From a virus, in IMG/VR virus record IMGVR_UViG_3300000116_000005, positions 1-5,026 of that record: 5,026 nt of DNA; one strand, 5' to 3'. A model generated the notes under the pieces. The model searched no databases, had not been told where the DNA came from, and worked only from the letters and a program-made list of their open reading frames with translations. The position numbers were made by a program, and so were the translations under genes. Positions within the stretch are counted from its first letter, which is position 1. Each line of letters starts with the position of its first letter. Shown piece by piece: positions 1 to 5,026 of this stretch.

Positions 1-43
1 CCCATTTAAGCACCTCGCCGTTATAATGCTTATCTAGGGTTTT
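1..43. repeat. Terminal redundancy, copy A (identical to 4984-5026). This is the signature of a circular contig.
   Basis: cccatttaagcacctcgccgttataatgcttatctagggtttt occurs at 1-43 and again at 4984-5026 with 43/43 identity. The Rep reading frame continues seamlessly through the junction. Confidence 0.97.
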
Positions 44-889
44 ATGAAAGTCATTGACTTTTTTGTTTACGTGTTTTAAATATGATCTTTGACTTATTTC
101 TAATCTTTTTTCTTTTTCTGTGAATAATCTTTGTACATATGCTTTTGGTAATCTTCTAATATTTCCGTTCATATCTGCTGTACTTAAATCTTCTGTTTCT
201 ATATGATGTTTACTATAGTTGTTTAAATAAAAACTTCCAAGTATACTGTACTTTGATGATCTTCTTCCTTTTGACATCATAGAAAACGGTCTTACCCGTT
301 TGTCGTTTTTTCCCCAATCTTTGAACATATATTTTGTAACATAGTTTATTGAACTTGCTGTAACTGTTCCTACATCTACGTATCCATGTTTTAAACCTGT
401 TAATGTGTTTTTCCATTGGTCTGTTATAGGTCTAAGATTTGCGATATCATAGTTAAACAATAACATATGATAATGAGGTCTTCGGGTTTTACTACCGTAT
501 TCGCCAACTGCATAATATCTAATAGGTTTACTAACATCTTTAACTTGTTTTTTTGTTACTTTTAGTTCTTTTGTTACATACTTTACATGATCGTTTCTTA
601 AACGTTTTATATAATCTTGTAAATGTTTTTTATGAAGTGTTAAATACCCTTCTTTTGTTCTTGGTATACTCCAATCTCCATATGTTAACGTAATGAATAG
701 CGCTGAATCGCTTCCTAAATACTCGTGTTCTAGTCTTAAACTCCAATCTGATCTTCTTTTTTTTCTACATTGTAGGCATTTGCCACATGGTACTCGGAAG
801 TCTAAGTCTTTTATTTTTAAACTGTTACTGCATGATGTTGCTATAACGTCAGGATAGAATCCAAAGTCTTCTAAGTACCGTTGTTTCAT
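1..889 (-). CDS. VP4: Replication initiator protein (Rep, VP4 / phiX174 gene A family), N-terminal 296 codons. The ORF runs off the window start and continues at 4983->4919.
   Basis: I translated this by hand from the ATG at 889-887 and found no stop codon down to position 1. The product begins MKQRYLEDFGFYPD. It carries a Cys cluster, VPCGKCLQC (767-787), and motif 1, FITLTY (680-697). The HUH motif RPHYHMLLF has HYH at 467-475. The paired catalytic tyrosines YVTKY lie at 329-343, compared with YVAKY in phiX174 protein A. The ORF is absent from the ORF track only because it has no in-window stop. Confidence 0.93.
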   Translation of the reverse strand, partial: MKQRYLEDFGFYPDVIATSCSNSLKIKDLDFRVPCGKCLQCRKKRRSDWSLRLEHEYLGSDSALFITLTYGDWSIPRTKEGYLTLHKKHLQDYIKRLRNDHVKYVTKELKVTKKQVKDVSKPIRYYAVGEYGSKTRRPHYHMLLFNYDIANLRPITDQWKNTLTGLKHGYVDVGTVTASSINYVTKYMFKDWGKNDKRVRPFSMMSKGRRSSKYSILGSFYLNNYSKHHIETEDLSTADMNGNIRRLPKAYVQRLFTEKEKRLEISQRSYLKHVNKKVNDFHKTLDKHYNGEVLKW

Positions 890-978
890 GACAGTCTAAT
901 TCCTCCTCTTTTTGCTAGAATGAATTTGCTTGATCTTCTTTTTGACTTGTAACGTCTTCTTGTTCTATATCTGTTCAT
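886..978 (-). CDS. Small arginine/lysine-rich peptide (30 aa), a putative DNA-binding/packaging protein analogous to phiX174 J or gokushovirus ORF8.
   Basis: Hand translation gives MNRYRTRRRYKSKRRSSKFILAKRGGIRLS, with 13 of 30 residues basic and none acidic. It fills the gap between the VP2 stop (990) and the Rep start (889). Its TGA (886-888) overlaps the Rep ATG as ATGA. It is too short to appear in the ORF track. Confidence 0.6.
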   Translation of the reverse strand: MNRYRTRRRYKSKRRSSKFILAKRGGIRLS

Positions 979-989
979 AATTATTTATT

Positions 990-1862
990 TTAATTTTTGA
1001 TATTTTGTATACTAATTTCTTGCGCTCTATTGACAGTTGTATTATTACCTTTTTTTCCTGTGATTTTATTTATAAAACCATATAAACTGAATAATGTATC
1101 TATACCTTTTTTACCTGTATAAATAAGAGCTATTTGTGCCATAATCATTTGTTTTACAGTCATTTTTACACCTGATTCAAAACCAAACTTTTTTGCGGCT
1201 TCTTTTCCTATTTCTATTTGTTTATTCATAACTCCTGGTTGTGATAAATCTTCTTGTCCTGATAATAATGAGATTACTGTTGCCATTGAATCGTTAAATA
1301 TTCCATTTTGTTTCATACCTAACATTAATTCTTTTAATGCGGCGTCTGACATTGATGATTGATAATCTGCGGCTAAACTTTTGAAATATTGTTCTTTTTG
1401 CATTGTCATTCCTTCACCTATTAAACCTTGAATTACTGCGTTTGCTTTAGCTAATAATGTATTTGCTTTTTGATTTTCTTTATTTACGCCTAACATTGAT
1501 GCTTGTACACCTGCGGCTGTACTTTGTGCGAAATCTGCTGAACTATAATACGGGTCTAATTGTTGAAATTGTGATGTTGGCATTTGATTTGCATTTCCTG
1601 TTGTGCCTTGTCCATACATTAAAGCTGGATTTAATCCTGCTTGTTTTAATCTTTCCATTTGTGCTTTTGGTGTATTGTATGCGTTTTGATAATCCCACAT
1701 TTGTTTATCTAACTTGAACCTTTCGTTCATTAATTGCTTTGATCTGTTAAATGCTTTTTTTCTTGAGCCTATACCAAATAATGCTGATACACCACCCGTT
1801 GCTAATGCTCCTAAACCTCCTGTTGCTGCGCCTTTTAATGCGCCTGTTAACCATGAACCCAT
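990..1862 (-). CDS. VP2: Minor capsid / DNA pilot protein (VP2, functional analogue of phiX174 H).
   Basis: The 290-aa ORF has a Gly/Ala-rich N-terminus (MGSWLTGALKGAATGGLGALATGG). This is followed by ...KQMWDYQNAYNTPKAQMERLKQAGLNPALMYGQG, the AGLNP-L-Y signature typical of gokushovirus-type VP2. An in-frame TAG sits 9 nt upstream of the ATG. Confidence 0.85.
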   Translation of the reverse strand: MGSWLTGALKGAATGGLGALATGGVSALFGIGSRKKAFNRSKQLMNERFKLDKQMWDYQNAYNTPKAQMERLKQAGLNPALMYGQGTTGNANQMPTSQFQQLDPYYSSADFAQSTAAGVQASMLGVNKENQKANTLLAKANAVIQGLIGEGMTMQKEQYFKSLAADYQSSMSDAALKELMLGMKQNGIFNDSMATVISLLSGQEDLSQPGVMNKQIEIGKEAAKKFGFESGVKMTVKQMIMAQIALIYTGKKGIDTLFSLYGFINKITGKKGNNTTVNRAQEISIQNIKN

Positions 1863-1933
1863 ATTATTTACCTATTTTGCCGTCATTGTCTAGATCGGCG
1901 TTAATTACTTCTTCAATTAATTTTATTGTTACT

Positions 1934-2389
1934 TCAAGCAACTTTGGTAAGATGCTTTCTGCTATTTTTAATAGTATTTTCTTTCCCATTTTTTATGTCT
2001 TTTATTGTTATTTTATGTTCTTCGTGGCATAATATTGCCTCTAATGTTGTTACTGCGTGTCTACTAAAGAATACTTGTTGTGGTATTTCTTCCTGATAAT
2101 TTACTAGTCCTACACTGATACATCCTTCCAATTCAATTCCACGATTAGCTGAATGTATACGGATGCCATATCTGTTAGGTACGTCGATAATTTCCAGTGT
2201 TTCTCTATTAAACTTATTGCTAGGAGTATAATTAATAGTATAAGTGCCTTCTTGTATTTTCCTGTCATTGTTTTCTACTGTACTGAAGTAGAATATTCCG
2301 TTATGTTTAGAGTGTACTTCTAATATTCCGAATAAACTTCTTTGGTTTCCTAGTACTTTTCTTTTTAATATTATATCTTTAATAACCAT
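1934..2389 (-). CDS. Accessory protein resembling the DUF5675 family, with a His79...Gly-Cys90 motif and unknown function.
   Basis: The 151-aa ORF is the first ATG after an in-frame TAG. The segment FSTVENNDRKIQEGTYTINYTPSNKFNRETLEIIDVPNRYGIRIHSANRGIELEGCISVG...SRHAVTTLEAIL fits my recollection of the DUF5675 (PF18925) pattern. The His codon is at 2153-2155 and the Cys codon at 2120-2122. It is not part of the microvirus core gene set. The family assignment is from memory and was not searched. Confidence 0.6.
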   Translation of the reverse strand: MVIKDIILKRKVLGNQRSLFGILEVHSKHNGIFYFSTVENNDRKIQEGTYTINYTPSNKFNRETLEIIDVPNRYGIRIHSANRGIELEGCISVGLVNYQEEIPQQVFFSRHAVTTLEAILCHEEHKITIKDIKNGKENTIKNSRKHLTKVA

Positions 2390-2441
2390 ATTGCGAATTT
2401 GATAATTAGTGTTTTTTGCTTTTTTATCGTTTTCCTCTGAT

Positions 2442-2469
2442 TTGAACTATAATTTATAGTATGTTAATT
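2442..2469 (+). other. dif-like 28-mer, a candidate XerC/XerD-type recombination site, overlapping a perfect 7+1+7 palindrome (2446-2460).
   Basis: ttgaactataa-tttata-gtatgttaatt compared with E. coli dif GGTGCGCATAA-TGTATA-TTATGTTAAAT gives 18/28 identities overall. Over the conserved inner-XerC, central and XerD part it gives 18/21. The core TATGTTAA is identical. The palindrome actataa-t-ttatagt lies at 2446-2460. Confidence 0.3.
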
Positions 2470-2516
2470 GCTAATTCCTTAGAGGTATACGCTAATATAT
2501 GAATTTTTTCTAATAT

Positions 2517-2538
2517 AAATAATAGTCCCCTATTATTT
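2517..2538. repeat. Inverted repeat / hairpin with a 9-bp stem and 4-nt loop.
   Basis: aaataatag (2517-2525) pairs perfectly with ctattattt (2530-2538). The loop is tccc, which reads GGGA on the coding strand. The stem is AT-rich, with only one G:C pair. Confidence 0.6.
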
Positions 2539-2588
2539 TCTTACTTTTTTCCCTTTTTTTTTGTCTTATTGCCTATTTCATAGTCATT

Positions 2589-2621
2589 GAGCCATATATT
2601 ATCAAGTCGTATATATGGCTC
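2589..2621 (-). other. 11-bp stem / 11-nt loop hairpin, a candidate rolling-circle (+)-strand origin with a phiX174-like nick motif in the loop.
   Basis: gagccatatat (2589-2599) pairs perfectly with atatatggctc (2611-2621). On the coding strand the loop plus the adjoining arm reads CGACTTGATAATA (2609->2597). The phiX174 ori is CAACTTG^ATATTA, so 11/13 positions are identical, including ACTTGATA. The structure is certain; the function is inferred. Confidence 0.4.
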
Positions 2622-2631
2622 TTTAATACAC

Positions 2632-2662
2632 AAAAAAAAGGCCGATATTTCTACCGACCTTT
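2632..2662 (-). terminator. Rho-independent terminator downstream of VP3.
   Basis: The coding strand reads AAAGGUCGGUA-GAAA-UAUCGGCCUUU followed by further U residues, an 8-U run in total. The stem is 11 bp including two G-U pairs, and the loop is a GAAA tetraloop. It begins 22 nt after the VP3 stop codon (2685-2687). Confidence 0.65.
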
Positions 2663-2684
2663 AAAACAAAACTAACTACCCAAA

Positions 2685-3062
2685 TTATTCTGATTTGGTC
2701 TCTTTTTCTGTTTGTGTATCTACTACTGCTTCTTTAGATGCTTGTATTAGTGCTTCTTGCTTTGCCTTTTCGTGATCTGATATTTTTGTTTGCAATGCTT
2801 TCACTTGACTACTAACTTCTGATAGATATTGCAGTTTTTCAACTGGTTCCATTTCTTGAATTTTATTCAATGTTTGTGAGCTGAATGTTGCTTGATCCTC
2901 ATAATAAGGTGTCTTATAATTGTCGTATGTCATACCTTGTGTATTTCTAAATAGAATTTCTCTAACTGACATTGACTGATTTGGTTTGGTGATAATTTCA
3001 CCTGTGTTGTCCTGAACTGTTATTTTCTGAACTTTCCACTTATCTTTAATTTTTTTGTTCAT
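2685..3062 (-). CDS. VP3: Putative internal scaffolding protein (VP3-like).
   Basis: The 125-aa ORF has a size and position typical of microvirus VP3. The N-terminal segment KPNQSMSVREILFRNTQG resembles the P..QS....I..R...G motif I recall from gokushovirus VP3 (Chp2-type ...PSLTKQSF..DIN.IV.RF.KTG). The C-terminal half is acidic and probably helical. The start overlaps the upstream ORF by 17 nt. Confidence 0.55.
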   Translation of the reverse strand: MNKKIKDKWKVQKITVQDNTGEIITKPNQSMSVREILFRNTQGMTYDNYKTPYYEDQATFSSQTLNKIQEMEPVEKLQYLSEVSSQVKALQTKISDHEKAKQEALIQASKEAVVDTQTEKETKSE

Positions 3063-3279
3063 CTGTCTTTAAATTACTTGTTAATAATTGATTTAATCTT
3101 AATACTTCTTTGTATAATAATGCTAATGCTGAACCATTTTCGTATACCATTGATTCTAATGTGTTTTCTTTAATATACTTTTCCTTGTACTCTTGAAACT
3201 TTTGTTTGAATTCTTTAACTTCTTTTTTTGTTGTTTCATCTTCTGTTCCTGATATTACATCATCTTTAATTAATTTCAT
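3046..3279 (-). CDS. Hypothetical 77-aa protein, Lys/Glu-rich and probably helical, with no family recognised.
   Basis: It fills the space between VP1 and VP3 on the coding strand exactly: a 14-nt gap after the VP1 stop and a 17-nt overlap with the VP3 start. The sequence is MKLIKDDVISGTEDETTKKEVKEFKQKFQEYKEKYIKEN...LLYKEVLRLNQLLTSNLKTDEQKN. I recognise no motif. Confidence 0.55.
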   Translation of the reverse strand: MKLIKDDVISGTEDETTKKEVKEFKQKFQEYKEKYIKENTLESMVYENGSALALLYKEVLRLNQLLTSNLKTDEQKN

Positions 3280-3293
3280 TTTATTTTATTTAT

Positions 3294-4922
3294 TTAGGTT
3301 AAACTTGGGTTACTGAAGTATGGTATTGGTCTTACTGCGTTTACTTTATGATATAAACTTATCCAGCATTTGTCTTCATTTGCATCTTCTATTGCAAATA
3401 TTCTTGTGTCGGGTGCACATTCTATGAATGATTGATTTAAAGTTGGTGCGTTGTTTTCGAACCTTCTTGATAGTTCCCAATGTGCTAGCGTATCTCTAAA
3501 GTCTCCGGCTACTCTGTTTTCTGCGTACTTATATTCCGCATATCGTTGCTGATATCCAAATATTTGATTATCGTCTGTTGTATTTCCTTCTACATAAATT
3601 TCTTTATTGTATACTTCTTGTTCGCCTAGATTTGCGAATTGTGGGAAATAATGATCGAATTTGTCAAACTTTTGCCAAAATCTGTTTAATCCTTGTACGT
3701 ATGATGTTTTAGGTATAATTCTACATAATCCTAATATAATTCCATGTTCGTCGAATGATTGTGTAAATCCTATATTATCTCCTAATCCTAAAGCATGTCC
3801 ATACATATCTCCTGCTGGTCTTGATGTTGATACTGATTTATCTTCGTATGTACTTAATATTTCTGATACCATTATTGGTGTTTTACCACCTCCTAAGTAT
3901 TTTGGAATTTGTACTGTATAATCTGGAATTCTTTCTCCAAATATTGCGTATATCTGTTCCCTGTATCTTGAACCAGCTCTGGCCATAAGCTCTAACCACT
4001 GTTGAAGAGCTGATGCTTTTCTTAGTTCGTTAATTGTTGCGCCTGTTGCTGATGATAAATCTGCTACTAAATTTCTAGAATTGTCTATATCTATTCCTGT
4101 TGTGCCTGGTAAATTAGCAATAACTTGTCCTGAACTTGAAGTTTGTAATGCTGAAACACCATCAAAACTCATACTATTTATTGTATTACCTCCTGAATTG
4201 TTTCTTATTTGTGTTGAATAAGAAGTATCGTTATCATATAAAATTGGTGCTGTGCTACCTAATGGAAGTGTTACTTCTGCGCCTCTTTGTAAGAATGGTA
4301 ATGAACTTGTAAAATAATCTTTTTGCCAATTTGATTTTCTTAATGACATTAGAGAAACTTGATCTGTTGATGTATGTACACCTGAACCTGTAAATTGTTC
4401 GTGTTCGTCTCCTACGTTTTGGTCTCTGAAGTATTCGTGCCATATTAATTGATATGCTCTAAATGGTAAAGCTGAAATTTCTTGTCTTTCTGCTGTTGCT
4501 GTTGCTATATCGTTCCAAGCTCCTCCTTTTGTTCCAGCTGTTGCTGTTGTTGGTGGTACTCCTAAATAGTCTGCTAATGATCCTTTTGTTAAAAAAGTTT
4601 GTGATGTTGCGCTTACTCTGATTCTTGGATAAGAGGGTAGATCGTTTCCGTCTTCTCCTCCTGTAATGAAGTCTTTCCATTCGTCCCATATAATTCTGTA
4701 TGGTACAAAGAAATAATCTAGTTTAAAGTCTACATTGTGCATCATTGGTGCTAATAATGGACTAAACCTTACTAATTGTTGTGTGTTTACTTTGAAGCTA
4801 TCGCCAGGGATTACATCTTGTATGTAACATGGATATAATTCACCCATGTTTCCCGTCATCTTAACTTCATGAGATAAGTCGAAATTGTTTTTCTTCGGCT
4901 TTTTAACATAAATGTCATTCAT
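3294..4922 (-). CDS. VP1: Major capsid protein (VP1, Microviridae F-protein family).
   Basis: The 542-aa ORF carries hallmark blocks. These include NNFDLSHEVKMTGNMGELYPCYIQDVIPGDSF, LLAPMMHNVDFKLDYFFVPYRIIWDEWKDF, INELRKASALQQWLELMARAGSRYREQIYAIFG and IPKYLGGG. A Ser/Thr/Gly/Asn-rich insertion at about aa 221-295 sits where gokushovirus VP1 carries its large variable loop. Confidence 0.97.
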   Translation of the reverse strand: MNDIYVKKPKKNNFDLSHEVKMTGNMGELYPCYIQDVIPGDSFKVNTQQLVRFSPLLAPMMHNVDFKLDYFFVPYRIIWDEWKDFITGGEDGNDLPSYPRIRVSATSQTFLTKGSLADYLGVPPTTATAGTKGGAWNDIATATAERQEISALPFRAYQLIWHEYFRDQNVGDEHEQFTGSGVHTSTDQVSLMSLRKSNWQKDYFTSSLPFLQRGAEVTLPLGSTAPILYDNDTSYSTQIRNNSGGNTINSMSFDGVSALQTSSSGQVIANLPGTTGIDIDNSRNLVADLSSATGATINELRKASALQQWLELMARAGSRYREQIYAIFGERIPDYTVQIPKYLGGGKTPIMVSEILSTYEDKSVSTSRPAGDMYGHALGLGDNIGFTQSFDEHGIILGLCRIIPKTSYVQGLNRFWQKFDKFDHYFPQFANLGEQEVYNKEIYVEGNTTDDNQIFGYQQRYAEYKYAENRVAGDFRDTLAHWELSRRFENNAPTLNQSFIECAPDTRIFAIEDANEDKCWISLYHKVNAVRPIPYFSNPSLT

Positions 4923-5026
4923 AATGTTTCTGCGTTTATAATATTATTTAATAATCGGCGATTGTCTGATTCTTTTGCTTGTCCCCATTTAAGCACCTCG
5001 CCGTTATAATGCTTATCTAGGGTTTT
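4919..5026 (-). CDS. VP4: C-terminal end of the same Rep/VP4 gene across the circular junction (4984-5026 duplicates 1-43).
   Basis: The frame continues ...GEVLKW|GQAKESDNRRLLNNIINAETL and ends in TGA at 4919-4921. The joined protein is 317 aa. The Rep stop overlaps the VP1 start in an ATGA arrangement (VP1 ATG at 4922-4920). Confidence 0.9.
   Translation of the reverse strand, partial: KTLDKHYNGEVLKWGQAKESDNRRLLNNIINAETL
4984..5026. repeat. Terminal redundancy, copy B (identical to 1-43).
   Basis: Exact 43-nt match to the start of the window, at an offset of 4983 nt. Confidence 0.97.

Follow-up and report, generated by a model that had tools for sequence, protein, structure and literature searches.

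The DNA analysed here, called the window, is the whole stretch of 5,026 nucleotides (nt) at positions 1 to 5,026 of the IMG/VR virus record IMGVR_UViG_3300000116_000005. Between two of its genes lies a hairpin whose loop resembles the site at which the replication of phage phiX174 is initiated. Judged from comparison with related genomes, this hairpin and a short box beside it, together an element of 41 nt on the minus strand (2621-2581), are quite probably the viral-strand (+) origin of rolling-circle replication. An earlier note, made from the window alone, had put the hairpin forward as a candidate (+)-strand origin. That interpretation is now supported by a conserved loop, by stems that covary among relatives, and by a second box, GAC, placed at the same distance from the nick motif as in phiX174. 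The element thus appears to be a phiX174-type origin presented in a hairpin, and one that is apparently undescribed.

A conserved hairpin, loop motif and GAC box

The arms of the inverted repeat, 2589-2599 (GAGCCATATAT) and 2611-2621 (ATATATGGCTC), are 11 nt each, 100% complementary and separated by 11 nt, exactly the perfect stem of 11 base pairs (bp) and 11-nt loop described in the earlier note. As single-stranded DNA (ssDNA), the hairpin has a folding energy of -9.1 kcal/mol (z = -5.1), which none of 200 shuffled sequences equals. The coding strand reads CGACTTGATA with ACTTGATA exact, and 3' of the hairpin it continues with AAT-GACTAT. When CGACTTGATAATA is compared with the phiX174 13-mer CAACTTGATATTA, two mismatches are found, which agrees with the 11 of 13 identities to the phiX174 cleavage site that had been counted before. 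The 8-mer ACTTGATA is present once in the whole window. It is expected about 0.22 times in 5,026 nt on both strands, and at least one copy was seen in 40 of 200 shuffles. Scaled to the 295-nt intergenic spacer that holds the hairpin, the chance of the 8-mer was recomputed as about 0.013, close to the 1% estimated previously. The spacer has 27% G+C, and half of the hairpin stem is ATATAT. Taken alone, a single 8-mer and a single hairpin in such an AT-rich spacer are only suggestive. Comparative data lift the combination of hairpin and motif far beyond chance.

Relatives were collected by searching IMG/VR with the window's replication initiation protein (Rep) and then by Rep alignment, which gave 91 loci whose Rep identity to the window ranges from 92% down to about 30%. 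The genomes of phiX174 and of the cultured gokushoviruses Chp2, phiMH2K and SpV4 were added, and that of Chp1 later. The CTTGAT loop, the hairpin and its intergenic location are kept in nearly all of about 90 gokushovirus-like genomes, and the conserved element was also found in the four cultured phages Chp1, Chp2, SpV4 and phiMH2K. Conservation of motif and hairpin with covariation of the stem, which had been proposed as a check on the candidate origin, was clearly borne out in these roughly 90 genomes. Loop length varies from 8 to 18 nt across relatives, and in almost every element the nick would fall 2-3 nt short of the loop's 3' end.

The prominence of this loop was also evident from a survey that started from hairpins instead of the motif. 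Every perfect hairpin with a stem of at least 8 bp and a loop of 5-22 nt was listed in 94 gokushovirus-like genomes (phiX174 excluded). Among the 357 perfect hairpins obtained, the most frequent loop 6-mer was CTTGAT, present in 72 of the 94 genomes; the next unrelated 6-mer was present in at most nine. The longest hairpin was one with a CT[TC]G loop in 60 of the 94 genomes.

The stems are wholly different between clades, yet they are still paired (arms in Table 1). A covariance model was built from a MAFFT alignment of 82 distinct elements and then searched against all loci. In the resulting alignment, both-sided (compensatory) changes are present at 12 of 12 stem pairs. Compensatory cells number 122, against 36.7 +/- 4.8 in shuffles, and none of 500 shuffles reaches 122. 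The covariation score is 0.288, compared with 0.105 when shuffled; sliding the partners by 1-3 columns brings it to 0.101 or lower. The model-based alignment keeps a few weak, spurious rows, whose only effect is to lower these covariation figures.

An ungapped line-up of 86 distinct elements, anchored on the core, reveals a second conserved box, TGAC(A)C, whose GAC lies 18 nt past the nick G in most of them. In phiX174, G4 and alpha3 the corresponding arrangement is CAACTTGAT-N15-GACCAC, with a distance from G to GAC that is likewise 18 (G4305 to G4323 in phiX174). In the window, 18 nt past G2603 is G2585 of GACTAT, which matches the phiX174 GACCAC at four of six positions; the intervening spacer ATATATGGCTCAAT is A or T at 9 of 14 positions. 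The likeness to phiX174 is therefore deeper than the earlier note saw, as it includes a second box at conserved spacing. The strict pattern CTTGAT-N15-GAC was found on the gene strand of 70 of the 94 genomes and on the opposite strand of one, and shuffles gave it in 0-7 of 188 genome-strands. All 74 instances of the pattern lie inside perfect stems of 7-15 bp (median 10), whereas only 0.55% of random anchors reach an 8-bp stem. The box variant TGACTA was seen only in the Rep clade to which the window belongs (eight of eight members), which fits co-evolution of Rep and origin. Beside the hairpin of the window a single GAC box was seen, and iterons were not seen.

A motif-first control was also made, in which IMG/VR contigs were scanned for ACTTGATA-N13-TGACAC. 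This gave at least 112 matches in at least 110 new loci. Among the matches listed, 75 are in microvirus loci, 74 of them on the gene strand and 60 with perfect stems of at least 7 bp; the other 37 are in other, mostly large phage contigs, and none of these has a stem longer than 5 bp. The linear motif arises by chance elsewhere and, among the matches listed, the hairpin joins it only in microviruses.

A second small hairpin on the GAC box was considered as a core part of the element and was rejected, with a stem of at least 5 bp in 15% of elements against 7% of controls. In L001, L005 and L006, the closest relatives of the window, the GAC box is the 5' arm of such a hairpin, TGACT-aaaa-AGTCA, of 6-7 bp. 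At 2581-2560 on the minus strand of the window, only a 4-bp version, CTAT-gaa-ATAG, is present.

Proposed mechanism and alternative explanations

The nick of phiX174 has been placed between G4305 and A4306 (bioRxiv 10.64898/2026.07.25.740675), and by analogy the nick in the window would fall between 2603 and 2602. Beyond this position, we infer cleavage by Rep, cruciform extrusion and a role for the GAC box. The origin would be bipartite, with the hairpin loop holding CTTG^ATA single-stranded and the TGAC box just 3' of the hairpin. The inverted repeat may extrude or melt on the supercoiled replicative form, aided by its AT-rich, loop-proximal half. Rep, which is homologous to protein A of phiX174 and has an HUH motif and two tyrosines, would then dock via the GAC box and the loop, cut between G2603 and A2602, and remain joined to the 5' A by one tyrosine. 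The predicted cut would leave ...ACGACTTG-3'OH, with Rep on 5'-ATAATATATGG..., and the 3'-OH could prime rolling-circle synthesis by a host polymerase. After one round, the second tyrosine would cut the regenerated hairpin on the displaced strand, ending that round and starting the next, and the strand would be sealed into a circle. The hairpin would expose the cleavage box in two situations, on extrusion from the supercoiled replicative form and when it refolds on the displaced strand. The cleavage site of phiX174 is presumably exposed by melting of an AT-rich spacer.

Contig ends were tried as a trace of natural nicks, and this candidate was rejected because contig junctions are not enriched near the site overall. 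In the circular contig L029 (IMGVR_UViG_3300042295_001207, 127-nt overlap), position 1 is the A that follows CTTG, at the predicted nick. One such start was observed against 0.02 expected, and it is treated as a coincidence.

Several points weigh against the origin interpretation or temper the figures given for it. In the literature searched, no experimental cleavage, 5'-end or mutational data were found for any gokushovirus origin. The phiX174 origin works without a hairpin (fold z = 0.23), so a hairpin is not generally required by this Rep family, and some microviruses have the linear motif without a hairpin. About five genomes carry the whole element in the orientation opposite to the genes, and for these the origin interpretation needs the extra assumption that such phages package the antisense strand. 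The invariance of the core is partly circular, since the candidate picker required T[TC]G[ATG]T; it is independently backed by the MAFFT alignment and by the hairpin-first loop survey. Lastly, a single stem type, ATTAGTGC, accounts for about 45 of the 86 distinct elements, and the compensatory cells counted therefore outnumber the independent evolutionary events.

The best surviving alternative, which we nevertheless judge improbable, is that the hairpin is the complementary (minus) strand origin, a structure of the entering single-stranded genome that recruits host primase, RNA polymerase or PriA in the manner of the phiX174 primosome site or the G4 origin hairpins, with the likeness to the phiX174 nick site being secondary or part of a dual function. 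A stable hairpin on the viral strand would suit this role, no other minus-origin candidate was identified in the window, and conserved intergenic hairpins of other small microviruses have been tentatively tied to negative-strand initiation (Olo Ndela et al., PMC9865509). In sequence and in spacing, however, the loop and GAC box agree with the plus-strand origin of phiX174, G4 and alpha3. They have no likeness to the minus origins of those phages, which are sited elsewhere (at 3998 in the G4 record). The loop motif also stays constant whether the phage infects Chlamydia, Spiroplasma, Bdellovibrio or one of many uncultured hosts. Host priming signals would be expected to differ among hosts so unlike one another, and a reader encoded by the phage, Rep, would therefore fit this constancy better than host priming machinery. 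An added role in complementary-strand priming could coexist with plus-origin function.

Palindromes often bind dimeric proteins, and the element might instead serve as an autoregulatory Rep operator, a packaging signal or a dif-like XerC/D integration site of temperate gokushoviruses. Dif-like sites have been reported in the non-coding regions of some gokushoviruses (PMC7062461; PMC3091885). A dif site consists of two conserved 11-bp arms around a fixed 6-bp centre, whereas here the arms vary freely, their spacing ranges from 8 to 18 nt and it is the loop that is conserved. The element is nearly universal, while dif motifs were found only in 48 genomes and sporadically in the gokushovirus phylogeny (PMC7062461). 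As for packaging, that of the phiX174 type is coupled to origin-dependent synthesis, and so a packaging role would not be separate from an origin. A protein-binding site of another kind is accordingly given very little credence.

Slightly less credible still is an action of the hairpin in RNA, as a terminator, an attenuator or an mRNA-stabilising stem-loop between gene blocks. Its intergenic position just past a gene block, mostly on the coding strand, is what such a structure would show. The hairpin is followed by AATGACTATG, with no T run, and a terminator scan flags only a GC-rich, T-tailed hairpin at 2662-2637. Relatives have a separate terminator too: a GC-rich, T-tailed hairpin lies just upstream of the element in L001, L006, L018 and L087 as well, which speaks against the origin-like hairpin being the terminator itself. 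An invariant loop and a downstream box at fixed distance would be needless for a terminator, several genomes carry the whole element opposite to the direction of transcription, and no Rfam family was found above threshold. The last alternative, a chance hairpin with a chance 8-mer, which the base composition of spacer and stem and the roughly 1% expectation of the 8-mer might have allowed, is refuted by conservation, covariation, strand bias, fixed GAC spacing and synteny over about 90 genomes, and its probability is close to nil.

The genome, its spacer and variant elements

The window was found to be a complete circular Microviridae genome with a true length of 4,983 nt, ending in a 43-nt terminal direct repeat (1-43 is the same as 4984-5026). 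Every gene is on the minus strand (Table 1). Once the circle is properly closed, Rep is 317 amino acids (aa) long. It matches Pfam PF23343 (4.8e-17) and PHROG 942, "replication initiation protein" (4e-61), and no variation is seen at its residues H139, Y140, H141, Y183 and Y187 when it is aligned with relatives and with Chp2 open reading frame (ORF) 4. The earlier description of Rep as of the phiX A type, with HUH and YxxxY motifs, holds: the motifs are present as HYH and YVTKY and are invariant among relatives. No helicase domain was detected in Rep by the Pfam search, in which PF23343 was the sole match. The genome is a gokushovirus-like member of Microviridae because of its gene content, including a Rep that matches PF23343 and PHROG 942 and has HYH and YVTKY. 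A megablast of the whole window against GenBank phages gave no match and no near-identical genome.

Table 1. Features of the window, inverted elements in other genomes, and stem arms of the hairpin. Positions without a locus name are those of the window.
Feature	Position	Strand	Remarks
Hairpin 5' arm	2611..2621 (2621->2611)	-	GAGCCATATAT; perfect 11-bp inverted repeat; stem positions covary in relatives
11-nt loop with nick motif	2600..2610 (2610->2600)	-	ACGACTTGATA; predicted cut CTTG^ATA, 2603 (G) / 2602 (A)
Hairpin 3' arm	2589..2599 (2599->2589)	-	ATATATGGCTC; in place of the AT-rich spacer of the phiX174 origin
Downstream box TGACTA	2581..2586	-	GAC 2585-2583, 18 nt past nick G2603
Intrinsic terminator after orf125	2637..2662	-	AAAGGTCGGTAGAAATATCGGCCTTT then T run; sole terminator-like site in 2300-2800; folds
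Major capsid protein	4922-3294	-	Pfam Phage_F, 1e-110
Small ORF	3279-3046	-	ORF list
Small ORF orf125	3062-2685	-	ORF list; 5' border of the 295-nt spacer on the coding strand
DUF5675 protein, 151 aa	2389-1934	-	PF18925, 7e-17
DNA pilot protein	1862-990	-	Gene annotation
Rep gene, main part	1..889	-	Start 889, runs over circular junction; HUH codons 475-467, YVTKY 343-329
Rep gene, final 65 nt with stop	4919..4983	-	After circle closure
Inverted element	L012:899-956	-	Usual syntenic position
Inverted element	L058:3903-3961	-	
Inverted element	L081:2235-2291	-	Usual syntenic position
Inverted element	L186 near 2074		
Inverted element	L100 (GenBank MH992221.1), record 2754-2794		
Stem arm, window			GAGCCATATAT
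Stem arm, L005			GGACATACA
Stem arm, L009			CTGTGCAGTAGGC
Stem arm, L027			AACTGTATAGTAT
Stem arm, one large clade			AGCACTAATA
Stem arm, Chp2			CTAGCGTATAACAG
Stem arm, SpV4			TGGGGCATAT
Stem arm, phiMH2K			AGTTCGGCTAC
Stem arm, Chp1			GGGCTATAT

The 295-nt spacer lies between orf125 and the DUF5675 gene, and its order on the coding strand is terminator, 15 nt, hairpin and GAC box. The element is intergenic in 83 of 86 genomes, and it is almost always just downstream of the homologue of orf125 (or of Chp2 VP3) and upstream of the pilot gene (VP2) or of DUF5675. In the window the DUF5675 gene stands between the origin element and the pilot gene. It has the same place in about 14 of the 86 genomes for which gene context was compiled, and wherever it is present in those 86 it is directly downstream of the origin element.

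Other features of the spacer lie outside the element. A second perfect inverted repeat is present at 2517-2538 (AAATAATAG / CTATTATTT, with a 4-nt loop), after an A/G-rich run. At 2438-2469, a stretch of 32 nt with the palindrome CTATAAATTATAG overlaps a promoter-like site (2474-2446), and it is 91% identical (E = 0.03) to the intergenic region of the Cellulophaga baltica ssDNA phages phi12:2, phi18:4 and phi48:1. This match may reflect a shared host-type promoter, with a hint of a Flavobacteriia host, or chance. A blastn search with the spacer gave only this weak 32-nt match to Cellulophaga phages, outside the hairpin. Matches to Rfam were sub-threshold and attributed to chance, sroB over the terminator and mir-355 over the hairpin, and they were rejected. 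In Cellulophaga phage phi12:2, no element of the kind described here was found; its Rep is of a different family (PF02486 in the annotation).

Chp1 carries a divergent version of the element. At 2750-2776 of its genome (L096, NC_001741), the sequence GGGCTATAT-cctcttggct-ATATAGCCC is followed by GACAC, so that the loop has the variant CTTGG and the GAC is 17 nt past the G. The GenBank record of Chp1 annotates four "hairpin-like structures" (h1-h4), and this element is not among them. Linear versions, ACTTGAT-N-TGACAC(C) without a hairpin, were seen in a Ruegeria phage (L098:353-385; MF101922), at the junction of the peptidase and Rep genes, and in L137, L146 and L177. The latter three are contigs of about 5.7-6.7 kilobases that have AACTTGATA...GCAACTGACACA in common. 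These linear versions look like a phiX174-style, unstructured form of the same origin.

The inverted elements mentioned above, in which hairpin, loop motif and GAC box together are opposite to all genes, were found in about five of roughly 165 microvirus genomes. Those in metagenomic contigs may be assembly artefacts. No close relatives of the inverted-element genomes L012 and L058 were found in IMG/VR, and none of L012 among GenBank phages. The AT skew of the inverted-element genomes is ordinary. In three of four, the GC skew of the coding strand is no lower than the 95th percentile for the remaining genomes, and this high skew is not in the direction that cytosine deamination of an antisense packaged strand would give. 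To our knowledge, packaging of the antisense strand is not known in Microviridae. A broader proposal, to be taken as tentative and on the whole doubtful, is that all gokushovirus-like Microviridae use the stem-loop as their plus-strand origin, with a layout homologous to that of the 30-nt phiX174 origin, that its orientation alone sets which strand is displaced and packaged, and that the inverted-element genomes would package the antisense strand. If this were true, a universal stem-loop origin would link the structureless origin of the phiX174 type to the stem-loop origins of other HUH replicons.

Comparison with known origins of replication

In viromes from the gut, the sea and soil, gokushovirus-like microviruses rank with the most abundant ssDNA phages. 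As far as we know, no origin has been mapped in them, and phiX174 has been taken as the model for their replication. In the literature searched, no description was found of a gokushovirus origin or of CTTGAT in that context; an early remark in the original Chp2 and phiMH2K papers is possible. No origin or hairpin is mentioned in the principal comparative studies, among them Roux 2012, Kirchberger and Ochman 2020 and 2022, Zucker 2022 and Kazlauskas 2019. GenBank microvirus records have no feature over the element, or only a "hypothetical protein". A precedent is the description of intergenic hairpins in reekeekee- and roodoodooviruses, whose loop is conserved and whose stems show compensatory changes (Olo Ndela et al. 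2023, PMC9865509). Those hairpins were tentatively tied to negative-strand initiation, and the phiX174 nick site was not brought into the discussion.

A defined element of 41 nt offers a predicted cut site. It could also give thousands of metagenomic genomes a natural point zero and an assigned strand, and the combination of a hairpin with CTTGAT-N15-GAC could serve as a search model for origin annotation. In addition, it might be used as a minimal cis element for vectors or phagemids based on gokushoviruses.

Plasmid pC194 carries TTCTTATCTTGATAATAAGG at 993-999, in the context TTATCTTGATAATAAGG, and has CTTGATA in common with the window. We take 993-999 to be its nick region, which has reportedly long been likened to the phiX174 site, by Gros et al. 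in 1987 and in Khan's reviews. If this is indeed the nick region of pC194, CTTG^ATA would be a nick motif common to the initiator superfamily. The window's Rep matched only PF23343 in Pfam, and no Rep family of plasmids of the pC194/pUB110 type was detected.

The origins of geminiviruses, circoviruses and nanoviruses, which are eukaryotic circular Rep-encoding single-stranded (CRESS) DNA viruses, likewise have a covarying stem whose loop, about 10 nt long, displays a conserved nick motif. They too are intergenic, are cut 2-3 nt from the 3' end of the loop and are served by an HUH Rep from the same small circular ssDNA genome. The motifs differ, with a nonanucleotide of the type NANTATTAC in CRESS-DNA viruses and the loop ACGACTTGATA with CTTGATA in the window. 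Next to the stem, where CRESS-DNA origins have iterons, a single GAC box was seen in the window. Their Rep has one catalytic tyrosine and a superfamily 3 (SF3) helicase, whereas the Rep of the window has two tyrosines and no SF3 helicase domain was detected in it. The Rep groups of CRESS-DNA viruses and of the microvirus type have been placed in separate clusters (Kazlauskas et al., PMC6668415).

The nearest known system is the plus-strand origin of the Bullavirinae phages phiX174, G4 and alpha3, CAACTTG^ATATTAATAACACTATAGACCAC, which is cut by the gene A protein. The initiators belong to one family, HUH with two tyrosines, and the window has the identical core, CTTGATA. The layout is shared as well: a cleavage box, about 14 nt of spacer, and then a right-hand box whose GAC is 18 nt past the nick G. 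Baas and Jansz reportedly dissected the phiX174 origin into three functional parts. The phiX174 30-mer CAACTTGATATTAATAACACTATAGACCAC is at 4299-4328 of NC_001422, where the rep_origin is annotated at 4306. In an ungapped comparison, the window element is identical to it at 16 of 30 positions, which cluster in the two boxes; the right-hand one reads TGACTA in the window and AGACCA in phiX174. In phiX174 the origin is part of gene A and has no secondary structure, whereas the window element is intergenic and hairpinned, and gokushovirus elements fold with z of -2.5 to -7.2. Unlike in phiX174, the spacer of the window element doubles as the 3' arm of the 11-bp hairpin. Across the deep split between phiX174-like and gokushovirus-like phages, the bipartite layout has thus been kept, while the way in which the site is exposed would have changed, by melting of an AT-rich spacer in the one and in the loop of a hairpin in the other.

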